NCBI RefSeq assembly: GCF_003018235.1
Contig: NZ_CP027437.1
Direction: 5' to 3' (one strand)
DNA length: 64,000 nt
Source of the DNA: Escherichia coli
Lineage (GTDB): Bacteria > Pseudomonadota > Gammaproteobacteria > Enterobacterales > Enterobacteriaceae
Shown here: piece after piece, positions 10,111 to 21,505 of the stretch
Layout of the letters: each line of letters opens with the position of its first letter
Position numbering within the stretch: position 1 is the first letter of the stretch
Translations under genes and position numbers: made by a program
Notes under the pieces: model-generated
The model's database searches: none
Told to the model about the DNA's origin: nothing
Seen by the model: only the letters and a program-made list of their open reading frames with translations

Positions 10111-10131
10111 ACTACACCATTAACTACACCG
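10111..10131. repeat. attL core actacaccattaactacaccg
   Basis: Identical to 21485-21505; flanking ~40 bp show imperfect similarity. Confidence 0.7.
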
Positions 10132-10234
10132 TTCGGTGCACTGTATGAAACAACGTGGAACAAATAGACACAAGAAATATATGGGCGGGTAATTTATCTA
10201 TGTGAAAGCGTGCCGACTAATAGGGCGTTAATGT

Positions 10235-10256
10235 CGATATGGGGATCCCCATATCG
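10235..10256. repeat. perfect 22-bp palindrome cgatatggggatccccatatcg
   Basis: Read directly from the sequence. Confidence 0.6.
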
Positions 10257-10284
10257 GGAACCATACCGGAATTTTTGCCAGGTT

Positions 10285-10411
10285 AAATGTTAACCGCTGC
10301 CCTGTTAACATTTTTACCAAAAAGGTAGTTAACATTTTTTGCACGCAACCATATGAATCATAAAGACAAAATCAACAACAACGCTTCATCAGGCAGTTAA
10401 CATGTTAACTA
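10285..10411. repeat. array of four to five GTTAACAT repeats
   Basis: tgttaac at 10288, 10303, 10328 and doubled at 10396-10411; non-coding. Confidence 0.45.
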
Positions 10412-10925
10412 CTACAAAACGGTAATTTTTTCTCTGCGTGAGAGTGGGCGCGGTGTCCGAATTGTTCGTTGTTCGTGGCTAACCGCTCCCCCCCCTATAC
10501 CGGATTTTTTTCCGGTTAATCTTTAATCAGGCTGGTGGGGGTTACATACCCTTGATCACCGTAATGATGATTCAGGTATGCACCTTTCCCCCCGATGGGG
10601 TAAAAGCATCAACCGTAACGGTAATATCTGCCTTGATGGTCTGCGTGGTCATTATGACCATTCAGCCAATGACCTTAATCAGAATTTTTCGCTAAAAAAT
10701 GATGTTGGCCACGTCGTCCGGAAAGCACAAAATCCCGTCGATTTTTAATTAACGGTTAAACCGCCTTTTTGTCACGGTGTGTCACTGGTTGCCACTCACC
10801 GTCACGATGTCCGCTCGCCTGGCTGTAAATTAAACTACGAAAATTTCGTAGTTGTGAGGGACTACAAGTCCCGCGCAAATTTCCCCCGGTCCCCTCAAAT
10901 TGAGGTTGCCGGAAATATCAACCAG

Positions 10926-11219
10926 TTACCGCCGTAACCGCTCCAGCTTCTTCCAGTGGTACGTAATTTTCTCTTTCTCCCGGTACATCTCAACGCGGCG
11001 ATTGTAGGCCAGCATTTCCAGAACGCGGATCCGTATGTCGCGCATATCTACATCGTTAAGCTGGATACCATCACGGCGCATCACCTCAGCAACCACACGC
11101 GCATAATTTTCAGCGGTCACGCTGTCCGGCTGCGTTGCCTGTTCGTCAGCCTGCTGGCTGATTCCTGCAACGCGGTGGATTAATCGCAGTATTTCGGCTT
11201 CTGTCATTGTGCCCCCCAT
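10926..11219 (-). CDS. hypothetical protein next to cos
   Basis: 97 aa ORF MGGTMTEAEILRLIHRVAGISQQ; no family recognised. Confidence 0.45.
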   Translation of the reverse strand: MGGTMTEAEILRLIHRVAGISQQADEQATQPDSVTAENYARVVAEVMRRDGIQLNDVDMRDIRIRVLEMLAYNRRVEMYREKEKITYHWKKLERLRR

Positions 11220-11243
11220 CGTTCTAATCGTCTGGTGTCGTCG

Positions 11244-11313
11244 GGTCCTTCCTGGAATTATGGCCCGTTACGGGGCGGCGACCTCGCGGTTTTTCACTAT
11301 TTATGAGATTTTT
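11244..11313 (+). other. lambda-type cos site (cos-L), plus orientation
   Basis: cgggtccttcc (cosQ-like) then ttacggggcggcgacctcgcgg; 12-nt cosN gggcggcgacct at 11273-11284, as I recall the lambda cohesive end. Confidence 0.7.
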
Positions 11314-11319
11314 TAGGGG

Positions 11320-11472
11320 GTGGTTGTTGTTTAATTGTTTGTCATATCTATTTGATAACTAAGTAAAAATAGAGAGCAATACAACAACCTGATAGTGTTT
11401 TTTGATGCTACAAATAAAAAAAATGCTAATTGAATCAAATAGTTTTACAAAAATACGTGGTTGTTGTATTGC
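11320..11472 (+). repeat. three GGTTGTTGT repeats, middle one inverted, downstream of cos-L
   Basis: gtggttgttgt 11320-11330, caatacaacaacc 11377-11389, cgtggttgttgtattgc 11456-11472, separated by AT-rich spacers. Confidence 0.5.
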
Positions 11473-11521
11473 GTATTTGATGGCGTAACAGAAAGTGATT
11501 TTGAACTTTGCTGTTCTGTGA

Positions 11522-11731
11522 CTACTGATTGTTCCATGCTGGCGCGGCGAACGCTTCGGCATGACGCCCCCCAGCCAGAAAACCAGCCATTTTATTTCGT
11601 GCTTTGCTCACATCTTCCGGTGAGTAGCCGTAAATCTGTAAACCTTCATTGAATCGATGTTCTGTTTCTTCACTTGAGTACTCGTCGCTCTCCGATGAAA
11701 TCAGCCTGGCAACTTCAGTCTGCGTAGCCAC
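11522..11731 (-). CDS. hypothetical small acidic protein downstream of cos-R
   Basis: 69 aa, GTG start with GAGGTGAGG ribosome-binding site; sits where Nu1 sits relative to lambda cos but is not Nu1-like. Confidence 0.4.
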   Translation of the reverse strand: MATQTEVARLISSESDEYSSEETEHRFNEGLQIYGYSPEDVSKARNKMAGFLAGGRHAEAFAAPAWNNQ

Positions 11732-19119: not shown

Positions 19120-19176
19120 TTACTATCAGCGCCGTGGTGTGAGGTACTCCGGCGCATTGCTTTACAGGTACACACA

Positions 19177-19401
19177 ATGACCAAAGGCACATCATCACCG
19201 GAAAACGGCGAAATTACGCCAACATATGAAATTATCCGGCAAAGGCAGTCAGAAGCCTGCGCCAGACTTGAGGAAGAACTAACCAGAACAAAAATACCAC
19301 CAGCGCCGCGCTTAGCGCCACCAGAAAAATTTGCCCTTGAAGATTTTGTCGAGAAATACCCACGGCGGCTTAAATCTGGTAAAAACCGCCCGCCAGGCTG
19401 A
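19177..19401 (+). CDS. hypothetical protein
   Basis: 74 aa ORF co-oriented with the regulator; weak ribosome-binding site. Confidence 0.3.
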   Translation: MTKGTSSPENGEITPTYEIIRQRQSEACARLEEELTRTKIPPAPRLAPPEKFALEDFVEKYPRRLKSGKNRPPG

Positions 19402-19496
19402 TAGCATTGTCCACCAGCAATAGAACGGTTATCATGCTCTGGCTTATGTTTGGGATCACATACACATAAGGTGCAGCGGGTTAATTGTTCAGAAAG

Positions 19497-19527
19497 GCGG
19501 TTCCATTTCGGGGCCGCTTTTTTTATG
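19497..19527 (+). terminator. putative terminator after plus-strand regulator genes
   Basis: Short hairpin gcgg...ccgc followed by ttttttt. Confidence 0.3.
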
Positions 19528-19665
19528 CCTGAAAAACCCCAATTTTGTTGTTTTCCAGTCTCACCAGGGCGAACGAATCCCCGCCCACATTCGGGCGCAT
19601 ATTCAATCTTCATGGTTATATCTCTGTATTAGTGGATGTGTGGCGGCTGCGTGCCGCCAGCGTGA

Positions 19666-19854
19666 TTAATGAACTGCCTTGCAGCTATCCTTCCAGGCCA
19701 GAACCTCGGATAAAGACCAGCCAACGGAACGACCGCCAAGTTTACGACGTGATGGGAATTGTCCGGCCTTTTCCAGGCGGTAGCGGCATGAGCGGCTAAG
19801 GCCTGTTAGCTTTTCGCATTCTTTTTCACGTATAAACCGATCAGTGCTTAACAC
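19666..19854 (-). CDS. alpA: AlpA-family excisionase/regulator
   Basis: 62 aa; EKLTGLSRSCRYRLEKAGQFPSRRKLGGRSVGWSLSEV matches the AlpA helix-turn-helix signature. Confidence 0.75.
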   Translation of the reverse strand: MLSTDRFIREKECEKLTGLSRSCRYRLEKAGQFPSRRKLGGRSVGWSLSEVLAWKDSCKAVH

Positions 19855-20135
19855 TATTGCCCCCTTTCGTTTCTTAAAGAGTTATTTCGTGTTCTATTGC
19901 GTTGGGATGTGTCTGATTGTGTCAGGATGATTCAGAGTTGGCAAATGTTGAGGTCGTATGGTTTACAGAAAGAGGAACAATCAGGATAAAATCATTTAAA
20001 TTCATGTTAATACAAAGGCATAAAATCTCGTTTTATGCCTTTTTTCTCACGTGTTAAAGCGTTATTCGCTAATGTATAAAAAACCAGTCACACAAATAAA
20101 ATCAGTCACTTATAAACCTGCGTACTTTTTCGCCT

Positions 20136-20180
20136 CTTGTTCGTGGTTGTTCCACGTTGTTTCACATTGTTCGCCGTTGT
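20136..20180. repeat. TTGTTC repeats, putative integrase arm-type sites
   Basis: cttgttcgtggttgttccacgttgtttcacattgttcgcc; related copies at 10145-10165 and 10463-10480. Confidence 0.35.
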
Positions 20181-20228
20181 ATCTGTGTGCTTATCCAGTA
20201 TGCGCATACTGAAAAAACACGAAAAAAA

Positions 20229-21479
20229 TTATTTTCTTCTGGCTGCTGGTAGTGCGGTTACGTTTTCTTGTGTTCCCGCCAGTATCCCTAACCGCTCCGT
20301 CCACATATCCAGCGCATTGCGTTTAGCATCCAGATAACGGGAATGATTATAAACTCGCTGCATTCCTGGCATCTGGTGGCCTGTAAGCTGCTCCACGACG
20401 TGAGGATCCACGCCTAAATCGTTCAGCATCGTTGTAAAGGTGCGCCGGATGTCATGTAGTGACCAGTGAGGGTGATTTAGCCTCCTGTGCGCTAATCTGC
20501 CGTACTGCGACACGCTTGTTTCCTGTTTCACTTCCCCCAGCAATAAGCCCGTGTTCCTGTTCTGCTCCACCAGCTGCGTGACGAACGGCAGTATTGCTTC
20601 CGGTATGGGCCGGAATATTGCCACCTTCGTTTTGCTGTGTTCTTTCGGCACGGTCCAGAGCATTTCGGTAAAATCCCACTCTCTGATCTCCGATAACCTC
20701 AGTTCTACCGTCCGGCATCCGAACACAATCAGGAGGCGGATTAACGCGATGTAGTAAGGGGAAAATATTTTTTTGTCCAGTGCCTGCAATAATTCGCCCA
20801 GTTCTTTGGTGCTTAAGACACGCTCGCTTATATCCGGTTTTTTCCCAACGTCCGCCACACTCATATCATCAAGAACGTTGCTGATTGCATAGCGCCGCCT
20901 CCTGCAGAACTTAAGCGCCTGTTTGCACGTCTGTAGCAAGAATCCGGCAGTAACAGGCGTTCGCTTTGCCACCTGGTCAAAACAGGCCAGCCAGTGCCGT
21001 AGCTCGCATTTATCCAGCGGCATAGCACCAATGTGCTGTATTACGTGATTATTAAGGCGCTTTTTCAGGGCGGCATAATCCACGCGATTTTCCTTTGCGT
21101 ACGACTCAAGCCAGTAGGTGAGCGCATCGCCAACCGTTACCGGCTTTAACGCTTCCTGTACGGTGTAATTCATTTCATGACGTGGATTTTTCCCCTCTGC
21201 CAGCCATGCGCGACACTGGGCGGCTTTTTCCCTGGCTGATTTCAGGCTCAGATCAGGATAATTTCCCAGCTTAATGCGTTCCGGTGGTGCCCCCCTTCCC
21301 GTTCCGGCCCTGTAAGTGAAATACCAGGTTAAAAGGCCACTGGTTGAATGCCTGACGCTCAGGTTTCCACCGTCATTAAGAAAGGCTGTTTTTTGGGCGG
21401 GTGTGCCGTTGATTTTCCTCAGCTGTGTATCGCTCAGTTTGTTAAGTGCTCTGCTCATAATTTTGATTCCGGTCATCAC
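20229..21479 (-). CDS. int: tyrosine site-specific integrase, P4-type
   Basis: 416 aa; C-terminal LHDIRRTFTTML ... GHQMPGMQRVYNHSRY catalytic region; start 6 bp from attR. Confidence 0.9.
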   Translation of the reverse strand: MMTGIKIMSRALNKLSDTQLRKINGTPAQKTAFLNDGGNLSVRHSTSGLLTWYFTYRAGTGRGAPPERIKLGNYPDLSLKSAREKAAQCRAWLAEGKNPRHEMNYTVQEALKPVTVGDALTYWLESYAKENRVDYAALKKRLNNHVIQHIGAMPLDKCELRHWLACFDQVAKRTPVTAGFLLQTCKQALKFCRRRRYAISNVLDDMSVADVGKKPDISERVLSTKELGELLQALDKKIFSPYYIALIRLLIVFGCRTVELRLSEIREWDFTEMLWTVPKEHSKTKVAIFRPIPEAILPFVTQLVEQNRNTGLLLGEVKQETSVSQYGRLAHRRLNHPHWSLHDIRRTFTTMLNDLGVDPHVVEQLTGHQMPGMQRVYNHSRYLDAKRNALDMWTERLGILAGTQENVTALPAARRK

Positions 21480-21484
21480 AATTA

Positions 21485-21505
21485 ACTACACCATTAACTA
21501 CACCG
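21485..21505. repeat. attR core actacaccattaactacaccg
   Basis: Identical to 10111-10131. Confidence 0.7.

Follow-up and report, generated by a model that had tools for sequence, protein, structure and literature searches.

The 11.6-kb island that separates phoQ from roxA in this Escherichia coli chromosome belongs, with a probability of about 0.9, to the EcCICFT073 family of Gram-negative phage-inducible chromosomal islands (PICIs) and resides in that family's known phoQ/roxA attB. Because the island matches EcCICFT073 in gene order, in attachment site and over much of its sequence, the evidence supports the view taken in the initial annotation, that the element is a genuine, helper-dependent phage satellite, neither a prophage nor a decayed remnant, acquired by some strains at a non-tRNA site. 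It is not novel: it is an ordinary mosaic sibling of EcCICFT073 whose sole unusual feature is the packaging module, which looks like a recombinant with a lambda-like phage. The island reads from int at its roxA end to cos at its phoQ end, with nearly all genes on the minus strand, and the remainder of the window (the whole 64-kb stretch analysed) is colinear core chromosome in which no helper is visible and the icd prophage site is empty.

EcCICFT073, the well-studied prototype of Gram-negative PICIs from E. coli CFT073, is an 11.4-kb element at ycfD-phoQ with the core GGACATATTT (Fillol-Salom et al. 2018, Table S1, PMC6092414); experimentally, it excises, replicates and is packaged by lambda and phi80 via its cos sites (PMC6092414, PMC6739421). 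Alignment to the CFT073 locus accounts for 7440 of 11,617 nt, with nucleotide identity of 94% in the capsid module and 90% in int-alpA. From this relative, whose identity is 74-94% across just 64% of the length, we infer excision, replication and transfer of the present island.

The island lies between phoQ (8564-10024) and roxA (21698-22828) and, with both att cores included, spans 10023-21639 (minus orientation), as delimited by a break in colinearity with strain CFSAN061763 that has a 10-bp overlap, by the empty site of K-12 and by the rebuilt junction. Comparison with empty sites, that of K-12 among them, puts the inserted DNA at 10033-21639, or 11,607 bp. The attL core, AAATATGTCC at 10023-10032 (plus strand), is the reverse complement of the published EcCICFT073 core, and the same 10 bp recur on the plus strand as attR at 21630-21639, where the empty-site comparison and the colinearity break place the right end. 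Rejoining the flanks at this core gives a 300-bp junction with 100% identity to the empty site of CFSAN061763. The phoQ-roxA site is empty in 4822 of the 5426 complete E. coli genomes (89%), which bears out the proposal of a strain-specific acquisition. By homology with EcCICFT073, the tyrosine integrase would recombine at the 10-bp core.

A perfect 21-bp direct repeat, ACTACACCATTAACTACACCG, had been taken for the limits of the island. The repeat exists, at 10111-10131 and 21485-21505, and both copies are internal; as an att site it is rejected, because the junction rebuilt at the repeat is found in none of the 5426 genomes while the junction rebuilt at the 10-bp core matches exactly. The att site is thus the core, not the repeat. 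Each copy is a doubled motif, ACTACACC-ATTA-ACTACACC, and the window contains six copies of ACTACACC, where 0.8 would be expected. Both copies are on the plus strand, the left one within a 75-nt imperfect repeat at 10106-10180 and the right one, 6 bp upstream of the int ORF, within its counterpart at 21480-21554; in attP, doubled motifs would lie about 93 and 140 bp to either side of the core. EcCICFT073 shares the doubled motif, as does the AR_0085 element, which occupies another site and has a different core. Its presence in a relative at another site, together with its position and conservation, suggests that it is probably the arm-type site of the integrase.

The genes listed in the initial annotation (integrase, AlpA, a RepA-like ATPase, SSB, a capsid operon and cos) are all present and, with those described below, lie on the minus strand unless stated otherwise. 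The tyrosine integrase (20229-21458; phrog_1, E 4e-75) has 409 aa from the ATG used by relatives, in which the genes are likewise 1230 nt long, and its frame is open from a GTG at 21479. It is followed by an AlpA-family regulator/excisionase (19666-19854; phrog_2790, E 1.7e-17) and, just after alpA, by a 504-codon open frame (18099-19613) that runs to an Icd-like stop and is also kept in relatives. This frame holds two Icd-like segments (18099-18290 and about 18573-18791; NF033153) and embedded immunity RNAs: a C4/P4-CI-type antisense RNA (18345-18432; Rfam RF01695, 78.4 bits against a gathering score of 45) and an isrK/seqA-like element with a terminator at its end (18457-18533; RF01394, 63.5 bits against 50), the latter preceded by a promoter-like site at 18569-18540. 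C4 and isrK RNAs have been reported for Gram-negative PICIs, and the frame can be interpreted, after the same source, as the counterpart of P4 eta or the 'Bro zone' (PMC10111431). A divergent gene on the plus strand (18922-19119; phrog_949, E 1.4e-27, and annotation in relatives) encodes a YlcI/YnfO-family small protein. In the proposed cycle, a lambdoid helper would turn on AlpA, and AlpA would drive leftward transcription across this P4-like immunity region, with its promoter-like site, its seqA/isrK-like terminator and its C4/CI-like RNA inside the long eta-like frame.

The P4-type integrase with its AlpA/Vis arrangement, the C4/CI-type immunity RNA and the long eta-like ORF are what one would expect of a P4-like satellite dependent on a helper of the P2 kind. 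That origin is nevertheless very improbable, as PHROG scans detect no homologue of Sid, Psu, Delta, Epsilon or the alpha primase, cos is of the lambda rather than the P2/P4 type, and PICIs of the present type are set apart from P4 in published work.

The replication module of the PICI centers on a RepA-family replicative helicase, the replication initiator (15916-17325), identified by phrog_2850 (E 3e-221), helicase/primase PHROGs and annotation in relatives. Immediately 3' of rep, a predicted replication origin (15717-15925) contains five AAAAGTGAG iterons in two clusters flanking an AT-rich center, a layout described for PICI origins (PMC6092414); the iteron occurs six times in the window against 0.48 expected. 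Two small conserved ORFs of 80 and 122 aa (15100-15714; phrog_1231, phrog_27268) separate the origin from the gene for a single-stranded DNA-binding protein, SSB (14693-15103; phrog_44, E 3e-38). On the other side of rep, a DUF4222-family small protein (17322-17621; phrog_285 and annotation in relatives) overlaps the rep start by 4 nt and is preceded by a 160-aa protein (17627-18109; phrog_2512) with no PADLOC match. A PerC-family transcriptional regulator (14410-14682; phrog_994, phrog_10396 and annotation in relatives), whose PHROG match starts at ORF residue 41, is an accessory gene. Once excised, the circle would be converted into concatemers by the RepA-type helicase, the iteron origin and SSB.

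The capsid module is conserved but diverged. It begins with a 68-aa conserved protein (13798-14004; phrog_3255), the counterpart of c1498, which overlaps by 1 nt the start of the gene for a gpE-family major capsid protein homologue (12743-13798; Pfam PF03864, E 4e-50; phrog_29), the counterpart of c1499. A gpD-like head decoration homologue (12396-12731; phrog_49, E 6.5e-27, and annotation in relatives) corresponds to c1500, and a Nu3/scaffold-like 137-aa protein (11970-12383; C-terminus of phrog_53) corresponds to c1501 in size and position. This last protein has no Pfam match; 36% identity to residues 416-493 of PhiR12_1 C/Nu3 (BLASTP, E 4e-9) relates it, by sequence, to the Nu3/scaffold portion at the C-terminus of lambdoid protease-scaffold proteins. 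In EcCICFT073, deletion of the capsid or the decoration gene leaves transfer and interference unaltered.

PHROG scans and profile searches find no terminase, portal, protease, tail or lysis gene in the island, in agreement with the gene content first described; with no terminase, portal or tail genes in the element and 89% of genomes free of it, neither observation that was to overturn the satellite assignment has been made. A decayed lambdoid prophage that retained integrase, cos and capsid genes would account for the lambda-type cosN and for genes related to gpE, gpD and Nu3, yet it is very hard to credit: the int-alpA-rep-ssb-capsid-cos order in a single direction is not that of a lambdoid phage, relatives at several att sites keep the size and organisation, phoQ-roxA is a known PICI site, and no phage capsid among 50,697 phage records exceeds 47% identity to that of the island, which argues against a recent phage relic. 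Least probable of all is a capsid-forming PICI (cf-PICI), which assembles heads of its own and borrows nothing but tails from the helper; the island does have capsid, decoration and scaffold-like genes, but the portal, protease, head-tail adaptor/connector and terminase large subunit that distinguish cf-PICIs are missing, as is the HNH nuclease found in some of them.

The packaging module sets this PICI apart. Two exact copies of the lambda cosN 12-mer (GGGCGGCGACCT) lie at 11273-11284 (plus) and 11898-11909 (minus), inverted within a 77-nt inverted repeat whose arms form a cosQ/cosN site in plus orientation (11242-11318) and a cos site in minus orientation (11864-11940) upstream of the rpp remnant; EcCICFT073 also has two functional cos sites. 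Beyond the plus-oriented site is a 97-aa conserved PICI protein (10926-11219; phrog_1561) in the position of EcCICFT073 c1505. The minus-oriented site is followed by a phage-type cosB (11762-11860, minus), in which an R3-like CATGTCCGG at cos bp 50-58, an AT-rich spacer, two inverted CCGGACATG sites at bp 110-118 and 140-148 and a start codon at bp 179 mirror the spacing of lambda cosB. The cos-Nu1 region of phage PhiR12_1 matches the island cos region at 87.8% identity over 96% of the query.

That start codon opens a 69-aa chimeric ORF (11522-11731, minus), which joins nine codons of Nu1 (TerS) to the C-terminal dimerisation half of Rpp and a frameshifted tail. The translated N-terminus of PhiR12_1 Nu1 is VATQTEVAR, and a three-way alignment places the switch from phage to rpp at a shared TTGCCAGGC. 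The ORF lacks the winged-helix DNA-binding domain and matches only residues 83-126 of RppC (PDB 6hlk, E 3e-7); a full-length relative matches residues 2-127 (E 2e-32). A second lesion, a 1-nt deletion, alters the C-terminal tail. The claim that the ORFs are intact and translationally coupled therefore fails for rpp and holds for all others, which are open with short overlaps. A PhiR12-like lambdoid phage thus appears to have supplied its cosB and the first nine codons of its Nu1 gene in place of the PICI-type cosB and the N-terminal, DNA-binding half of rpp. Redirection of terminase through Rpp would be lost in this copy, and helper TerS would recognise the island directly, as it would a natural cosmid, which implies loss of Rpp-based interference and dependence on helpers with a PhiR12-like cosB. 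The helper terminase would cut at the lambda-type cosN and the DNA would enter helper virions; should their capsids be phage-sized, as they are for EcCICFT073, each would probably take about four units (4 x 11.6 = 46.4 kb).

The chimeric module is rare, being found in two of the 5426 complete genomes (GB089 and MFDS1022581) and one IMG/VR contig, all on another PICI backbone. The requirement for both Rpp surfaces, described in the Rpp paper, and the C-terminal 1-nt deletion would fit plain decay of the packaging module equally well. A chance recombination event with a prophage may have destroyed Rpp and the PICI cosB and left an element that can no longer compete for packaging, a chromosomal islet nearing domestication and perhaps kept for PerC and other regulators. 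Two independent rpp lesions (replacement of the N-terminal domain and the C-terminal frameshift), the reported need for both Rpp surfaces and the rarity of the chimera speak for such a fate. We consider it unlikely, if the most serious of the alternatives, since every other gene is open, with the short overlaps typical of translational coupling, both cosN sites are exact, the replacement supplies a complete cosB with correct lambda-like spacing, unlike a random deletion, and the same module on two PICI backbones at different att sites suggests spread or exchange since its origin.

Compared with known systems, the helper-dependent PICI is closest to EcCICFT073, with which it shares attB (ycfD/roxA-phoQ), the 10-bp core, the doubled motif, the size class (11.4 vs 11.6 kb) and the order int, alpA, ylcI, Icd-like region, DUF4222, rep, ssb, perC, 68-aa ORF, capsid, decoration, 137-aa ORF, cos, rpp slot, cos, 93/97-aa ORF. 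By contrast, EcCICFT073 has a primase-family replication initiator instead of a RepA-type helicase, the regulatory 'Bro zone' is in large part unrelated, and in the present island rpp is truncated and the PICI cosB swapped for a phage cosB. The GB089 and MFDS1022581 PICIs carry the same chimeric cos/cosB/rpp-remnant module at 99.6% identity over 740 bp, and IMG/VR UViG_2718217885_000003 shares the cos-capsid block at 93% identity, chimeric module included; all three differ in integrase, in att site (by tRNA-Pro and yejM), in a primase-type replication gene and in other regulatory genes.

Among the SaPIbov5-type cos SaPIs of Staphylococcus aureus, SaPIbov5 has a capsid homologue, Ccm, that is reported to make small capsids (Quiles-Puchalt 2014; Carpena 2016), a demonstrated role that sets it apart from the E. 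coli genes. These SaPIs, an unrelated lineage with unrelated proteins, resemble the island as interpreted here in using the helper's cos and unmodified helper terminase, in lacking terS and in encoding a capsid homologue (PMC6092414). Helper-embedded PICIs (HE-PICIs) are organised like other Gram-negative PICIs and have a capsid gene of the gpE family as well as C4/isrK immunity RNAs (PMC10111431), and their attP similarly has two co-oriented doubled 8-bp motifs at fixed distances from the core (81 and 132 bp vs about 93 and 140 bp in the island), but the motif is TGTATTGC rather than ACTACACC, and they are integrated in a prophage late gene instead of the chromosome. Satellite P4, like the island, is about 11 kb long, has an integrase with Vis/AlpA and embeds its CI/C4 RNA immunity region in a long eta-like ORF; the island differs in having no sid, psu, delta, epsilon or alpha, in its lambda-type cos and in a helper that would be lambdoid rather than P2-like.

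phoQ ends at 10024 and roxA (ycfD) starts at 21698, against a gap of 75 bp in K-12; the initial annotation was thus right that an island breaks this intergenic region. When aligned to the K-12 empty site and to strain CFSAN061763, colinearity with the chromosome ends at 10032 and restarts at 21630. A 10-bp duplication, AAATATGTCC, is present at both ends (10023-10032 and 21630-21639), giving an insertion of 11,607 bp. A 300-bp junction rebuilt at this core is 100% identical to CFSAN061763, and 4822 of 5426 complete E. coli genomes have it without interruption; because about 11% of the complete genomes lack the empty junction, the site is probably occupied in them. 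Site and core agree with the published ones of EcCICFT073 and EcCIRM12579, a dedicated att site that prophages do not use. In Table S1 of PMC6092414, the prototype Gram-negative PICI, EcCICFT073, appears at ycfD-phoQ with a length of 11.4 kb and the att core GGACATATTT, of which the island core is the reverse complement. The attP is predicted to read ...TTGATAAAATATGTCCTTTTATCA... and the empty attB ...GAATAAATATGTCCATACTTCA....

The island had initially been delimited by a perfect 21-bp repeat, ACTACACCATTAACTACACCG. The two copies exist (10111-10131 and 21485-21505, within a longer 75-nt repeat of 76% identity) but do not bound the insertion: they lie inside it, the limits drawn at them are off by 88 bp at the left end and 134 bp at the right, and the junction that they predict occurs in none of the 5426 complete E. 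coli genomes, whereas the 10-bp-core junction matches perfectly. The repeat consists of ACTACACC twice in tandem, at a period of 12 bp, and its 8-mer half-site has six copies in the window versus 0.8 expected by chance. In the reconstructed attP, two co-oriented doubled motifs flank the core, ~140 bp away on the int side and ~93 bp on the other. This arrangement is common to EcCICFT073, which has the same att core and the same internal doubled motif, and to other phoQ-roxA elements; among the related loci, in their own numbering, the motif is found at 3001-3021 and 14014-14034 of L001 and at 2385-2404 and 13604-13623 of L008. In strain AR_0085, an element with these arms and this motif is integrated between allC and allE, at the core GGGATAT, which further argues against the motif as a crossover site. 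The pairing of the same arms with AAATATGTCC at phoQ-roxA and with GGGATAT at allC-allE suggests that the integrase may have been retargeted by a core swap.

By analogy, the doubled ACTACACC motif is a putative binding site for the integrase arm domains. In helper-embedded PICIs, a doubled TGTATTGC motif flanks the attP centre at distances of 81 and 132 bp, and arm-domain binding by the integrase has been suggested (PMC10111431); the island has a similar arm geometry. A similar doubled motif has been described as exclusive to helper-embedded PICIs (PMC10111431), yet analogous motifs of other sequences seem to occur in the island and in tRNA-Pro-type elements too. The att core given for EcCIDI14 in Table S1 of PMC6092414, CGGTGTAGTTAATGGTGTAGTTAATT, is the reverse complement of the internal doubled motif of the island (21480-21505), and this assignment may suffer from the same problem as the 21-bp call. 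Some published PICI att cores may therefore be arm repeats rather than crossover sites, and re-examination may be needed; the tandem-repeat "cores" published for yejM-luxR PICIs (Table S1, PMC6092414) look similar to the doubled motif. A third repeat, TGAAACAACGTGGAACAA, has three matches versus 0.08 expected: one adjoins each doubled motif (10146-10163 and 21530-21547, both plus strand) and one further, inverted copy lies just downstream of the int stop codon (20147-20164, minus strand). AlpA or a host factor could bind to it.

All assigned genes of the island, ylcI excepted, are on the minus strand, and transcription is unidirectional. The tyrosine integrase (20229-21458, phrog_1) adjoins attR, and AlpA (19666-19854) follows downstream of int; the YlcI/YnfO gene (18922-19119) is divergent, on the plus strand, and a second plus-strand ORF (19177-19401, 74 aa) has no family match. 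Next come a 160-aa protein with no assigned function (17627-18109), a DUF4222 protein (17322-17621) and a RepA-type helicase (15916-17325), with iterons directly 3' of rep (15717-15925), where five AAAAGTGAG surround an AT-rich centre. They are followed by two small ORFs (15100-15714), SSB (14693-15103), a PerC-family regulator (14410-14682), a 68-aa ORF (13798-14004), a gpE-family major capsid protein (12743-13798; Pfam PF03864, E 4e-50), a gpD-like decoration protein (12396-12731), a 137-aa protein (11970-12383), a 69-aa ORF with a partial RppC match in the rpp slot between two cos sites (11522-11731), and a conserved 97-aa ORF (10926-11219). From AlpA onward, the assignments rest on PHROG matches, except for the 74-aa ORF and those of the capsid, 137-aa and 69-aa proteins. 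The 97-aa ORF was considered as Rpp and rejected, since a PDB search gave no meaningful match and Rpp belongs to the neighboring slot. The phoQ-proximal ~900 bp (10033-10925) have no convincing ORF, are patchily conserved in relatives and hold several GTTAAC-centred repeats and hairpins.

At several junctions, neighboring genes share 1-4 nt, supporting the translational coupling proposed from the initial reading. The ORFs are likewise intact, as had been claimed, apart from rpp, which is cut down to the 69-aa remnant. PHROG and NCBIfam scans of 19 island ORFs detected no large terminase subunit, portal, protease, tail or lysis gene; for the ORFs of the capsid module, perC, rep and others, NCBIfam gave only an Icd-like domain and a sub-threshold RadA match for the helicase. 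PADLOC identified no defence gene among ten island ORFs (eight poorly defined or without assigned function, the helicase and ylcI).

The island is a mosaic member of a well-characterised PICI family, at the prototype's own site. Its gene order is that of the CFT073 locus, from the integrase through the last, 93-aa ORF; 64% of the island aligns to the CFT073 element at 74-94% identity, reaching 94% in the capsid module and 90% in int-alpA. It has an integrase at one end with AlpA downstream, its own initiator with 3' iterons and helper-type cosQ/cosN, and its size of 11.6 kb is inside the ~8-15 kb PICI range. Related elements are found in 2564 of the 5426 complete E. coli genomes; examples lie at phoQ-roxA, at allC-allE and beside tRNA-Pro. 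The exact mosaic occurs in none of the 5426, the best match having 82% coverage and 89% identity, and the island is a new combination of known modules.

The SatelliteFinder PICI model (PMC10085698) comprises an integrase, a regulator, a primase/replicase, a capsid-morphogenesis gene and a small terminase, and forbids tail, holin and cf-PICI portal/connector genes. In PHROG scans, four of these five components are clearly present and the small terminase/Rpp is a remnant; the island would probably score as type B. The same scans detected none of the cf-PICI genes (portal, prohead protease, head-tail adaptor, connector, TerS, TerL) in the island. The assignment to helper-dependent satellites was right and well reasoned, given the EcCICFT073 gene order and site and the lack of terminase, portal and tail genes. 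Its novelty was overestimated: as a satellite, the island adds nothing new, since both its site, phoQ-roxA, and its architecture are the textbook ones for the prototype of Gram-negative PICIs. Beyond class, its modest value comes from the recombinant make-up of the packaging module and from the findings on the arm motifs.

In EcCICFT073, c1499 codes for a capsid homologue and c1500 for a head decoration protein; deletion of either leaves both interference and transfer unchanged (PMC6092414). Within the literature library searched, this 2018 deletion result was the only one found on the function of the capsid and decoration genes, and a capsid gene is present in 21 of 29 reference Gram-negative PICIs (PMC10111431). 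For the island capsid protein, identity does not exceed 47% with any phage capsid of the collection and is 42.7% with lambda-type capsids; the protein therefore belongs to an old, satellite-specific lineage and is no recent capture. Over residues 49-131, the 137-aa protein aligns with the C-terminal ~80 residues of the protease/Nu3 scaffold protein of PhiR12_1, a lambdoid Escherichia phage (36% identity, E 4e-9). Pfam and PDB sequence searches with this protein gave no match, and its assignment rests on the pairwise comparison with PhiR12_1 C/Nu3 together with a weak PHROG match. PGAP attaches the label "head-tail connector" to it in some relatives, but the island protein aligns to the Nu3/scaffold C-terminus and has no Pfam match. 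The PICI capsid module may thus consist of a scaffold-like, a capsid and a decoration protein.

A frame of 504-509 codons (18099-19613/19628, minus strand) is stop-free from just after alpA. It is antisense to ylcI, contains two Icd-like segments by profile matching, with the Icd-like domain at its end, and spans an isrK/seqA-like RNA element (18457-18533) and a C4/CI-type RNA (18345-18432), both on the minus strand and above the Rfam gathering score. Comparable frames of 371-576 codons are open in four relatives (EcCICFT073, AR_0085, GB089 and an IMG/VR contig) and broken in two others. The frame resembles P4 eta, and the whole region is built like P4 immunity: a promoter-like site (18569-18540), a seqA-like element with a terminator and a CI-like RNA follow one another within the eta-like frame. 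A permissive Rfam scan of the whole island gave no credible RNA besides C4 and isrK, models that match several reference Gram-negative PICIs (PMC10111431). The likeness to P4 is confined to int, alpA and the C4/CI RNA; the psu-delta-sid operon, epsilon and alpha primase have no PHROG match in the island, and the island cos is lambda-type, not P2-type.

EcCICFT073 excises, replicates autonomously and is transferred by lambda and phi80 through two functional cos sites (PMC6092414). By homology with it, a lambdoid helper would induce AlpA, followed by AlpA-dependent transcription through the P4-like immunity region; the integrase would excise the island at the 10-bp core, concatemers would arise from the helicase, the origin and SSB, and the helper terminase would cut cosN. 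EcCICFT073 DNA is packaged in phage-sized heads (PMC6092414, PMC6739421); four island units amount to 46.4 kb.

Outside the island, the window follows the core chromosome colinearly, and the 64 kb contain no helper prophage; iraM lies directly beside icd (1-470), and the icd-associated prophage site is empty in the source strain. The icd site hosts helper prophages of EcCICFT073 and of helper-embedded PICIs. Two small ORFs between icd and rluE (~2300-3070) correspond to the STM2901-family and DUF1493 genes of CFSAN061763; absent from strain 2014C-3338, the pair forms a small variable islet. The SraB small RNA is at 63134-63302 (minus strand; full-length Rfam match, 209.8 bits).

As in EcCICFT073, two exact GGGCGGCGACCT cosN sequences, identical to that of lambda (11273-11284, plus strand; 11898-11909, minus strand), lie within an inverted 77-nt repeat. 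In EcCICFT073-type elements, cos is followed by a PICI-specific cosB and rpp; Rpp heterodimerises with the helper TerS and redirects the terminase to the island (PMC6739421). Rpp is typical of this PICI subfamily, yet stands outside the published PICI identification criteria (PMC6092414). Taking Rpp as a protein of 139-154 aa with winged-helix and dimerisation domains, encoded beside a PICI-specific cosB, the island has only the 69-aa remnant, and its cosB is phage-type. The remnant matches RppC (PDB) at residues 83-126 only. Elsewhere the slot holds a 144-146-aa Rpp (one matching PDB RppC residues 2-127, E 2e-32) or a 194-aa Nu1-like TerS; such variants lie at 4302-4886 of L002 (RM10466 and many O26 strains), 3912-4352 of L001 and 12160-12594 of L008. 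The variability of the slot suggests that the elements may have repeatedly exchanged DNA with helper phages at cos.

In the island, ~285 nt of the aligned relatives, comprising the PICI cosB and the winged-helix domain codons, are replaced by ~140 nt. Taken with the flanking cos, the replacement corresponds to PhiR12_1 from cos through cosB to the start of Nu1, at 87.8% identity over 96% of the query. The first nine codons of the 69-aa ORF (VATQTEVAR) are those of phage Nu1; the switch to rpp occurs in frame at a shared TTGCCAGGC microhomology, after which the rpp 3' half follows, and an additional 1-nt deletion alters the last ~14 residues. The phage-derived cosB and ORF start occupy 11700-11945 (minus strand), and are also present at 11979-12740 of L003 and ~1434-1850 of L009. 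In the imported segment, CATGTCCGG occupies cos bp 50-58 (the lambda R3 position), followed by an AT-rich stretch, by inverted copies at bp 110 and bp 140 and by the start codon at cos bp 179; with these elements, the segment is a complete lambda-style cosB. GB089 and MFDS1022581 carry the chimera at 99.6% identity, and one IMG/VR contig has it too; all three carriers have a different integrase and a primase-type backbone.

Since both Rpp surfaces are required for function (PMC6739421), the island Rpp is taken as non-functional. The packaging module may then be simply broken; alternatively, a helper with a matching cosB would package the island directly, as in cos-SaPIs. Direct packaging is preferred, given the complete cosB and the spread of the module across backbones. 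More tentatively, with a probability of roughly 0.3, the island and the GB089-type elements would represent a PICI lineage with changed piracy, in which recombination with a helper at cos swapped Rpp retargeting for cosB mimicry. If so, the Rpp dimerisation fragment might still act, e.g., by poisoning the Rpp of competitor PICIs or by binding the helper TerS, and the rpp slot, filled by Rpp, a full TerS or the chimera, would be a hotspot for the exchange of packaging specificity between PICIs and lambdoid phages.

Such a lineage would be a natural Gram-negative counterpart of cos-SaPIs. The island carries a natural recombinant packaging module, a PICI with a helper phage cosB and no Rpp DNA-binding domain, and could serve directly to test whether Rpp can be dispensed with if cosB and helper match. 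The engineered chimera behind the Rpp mechanism is lambda with a PICI cosB; the island module is its reverse.
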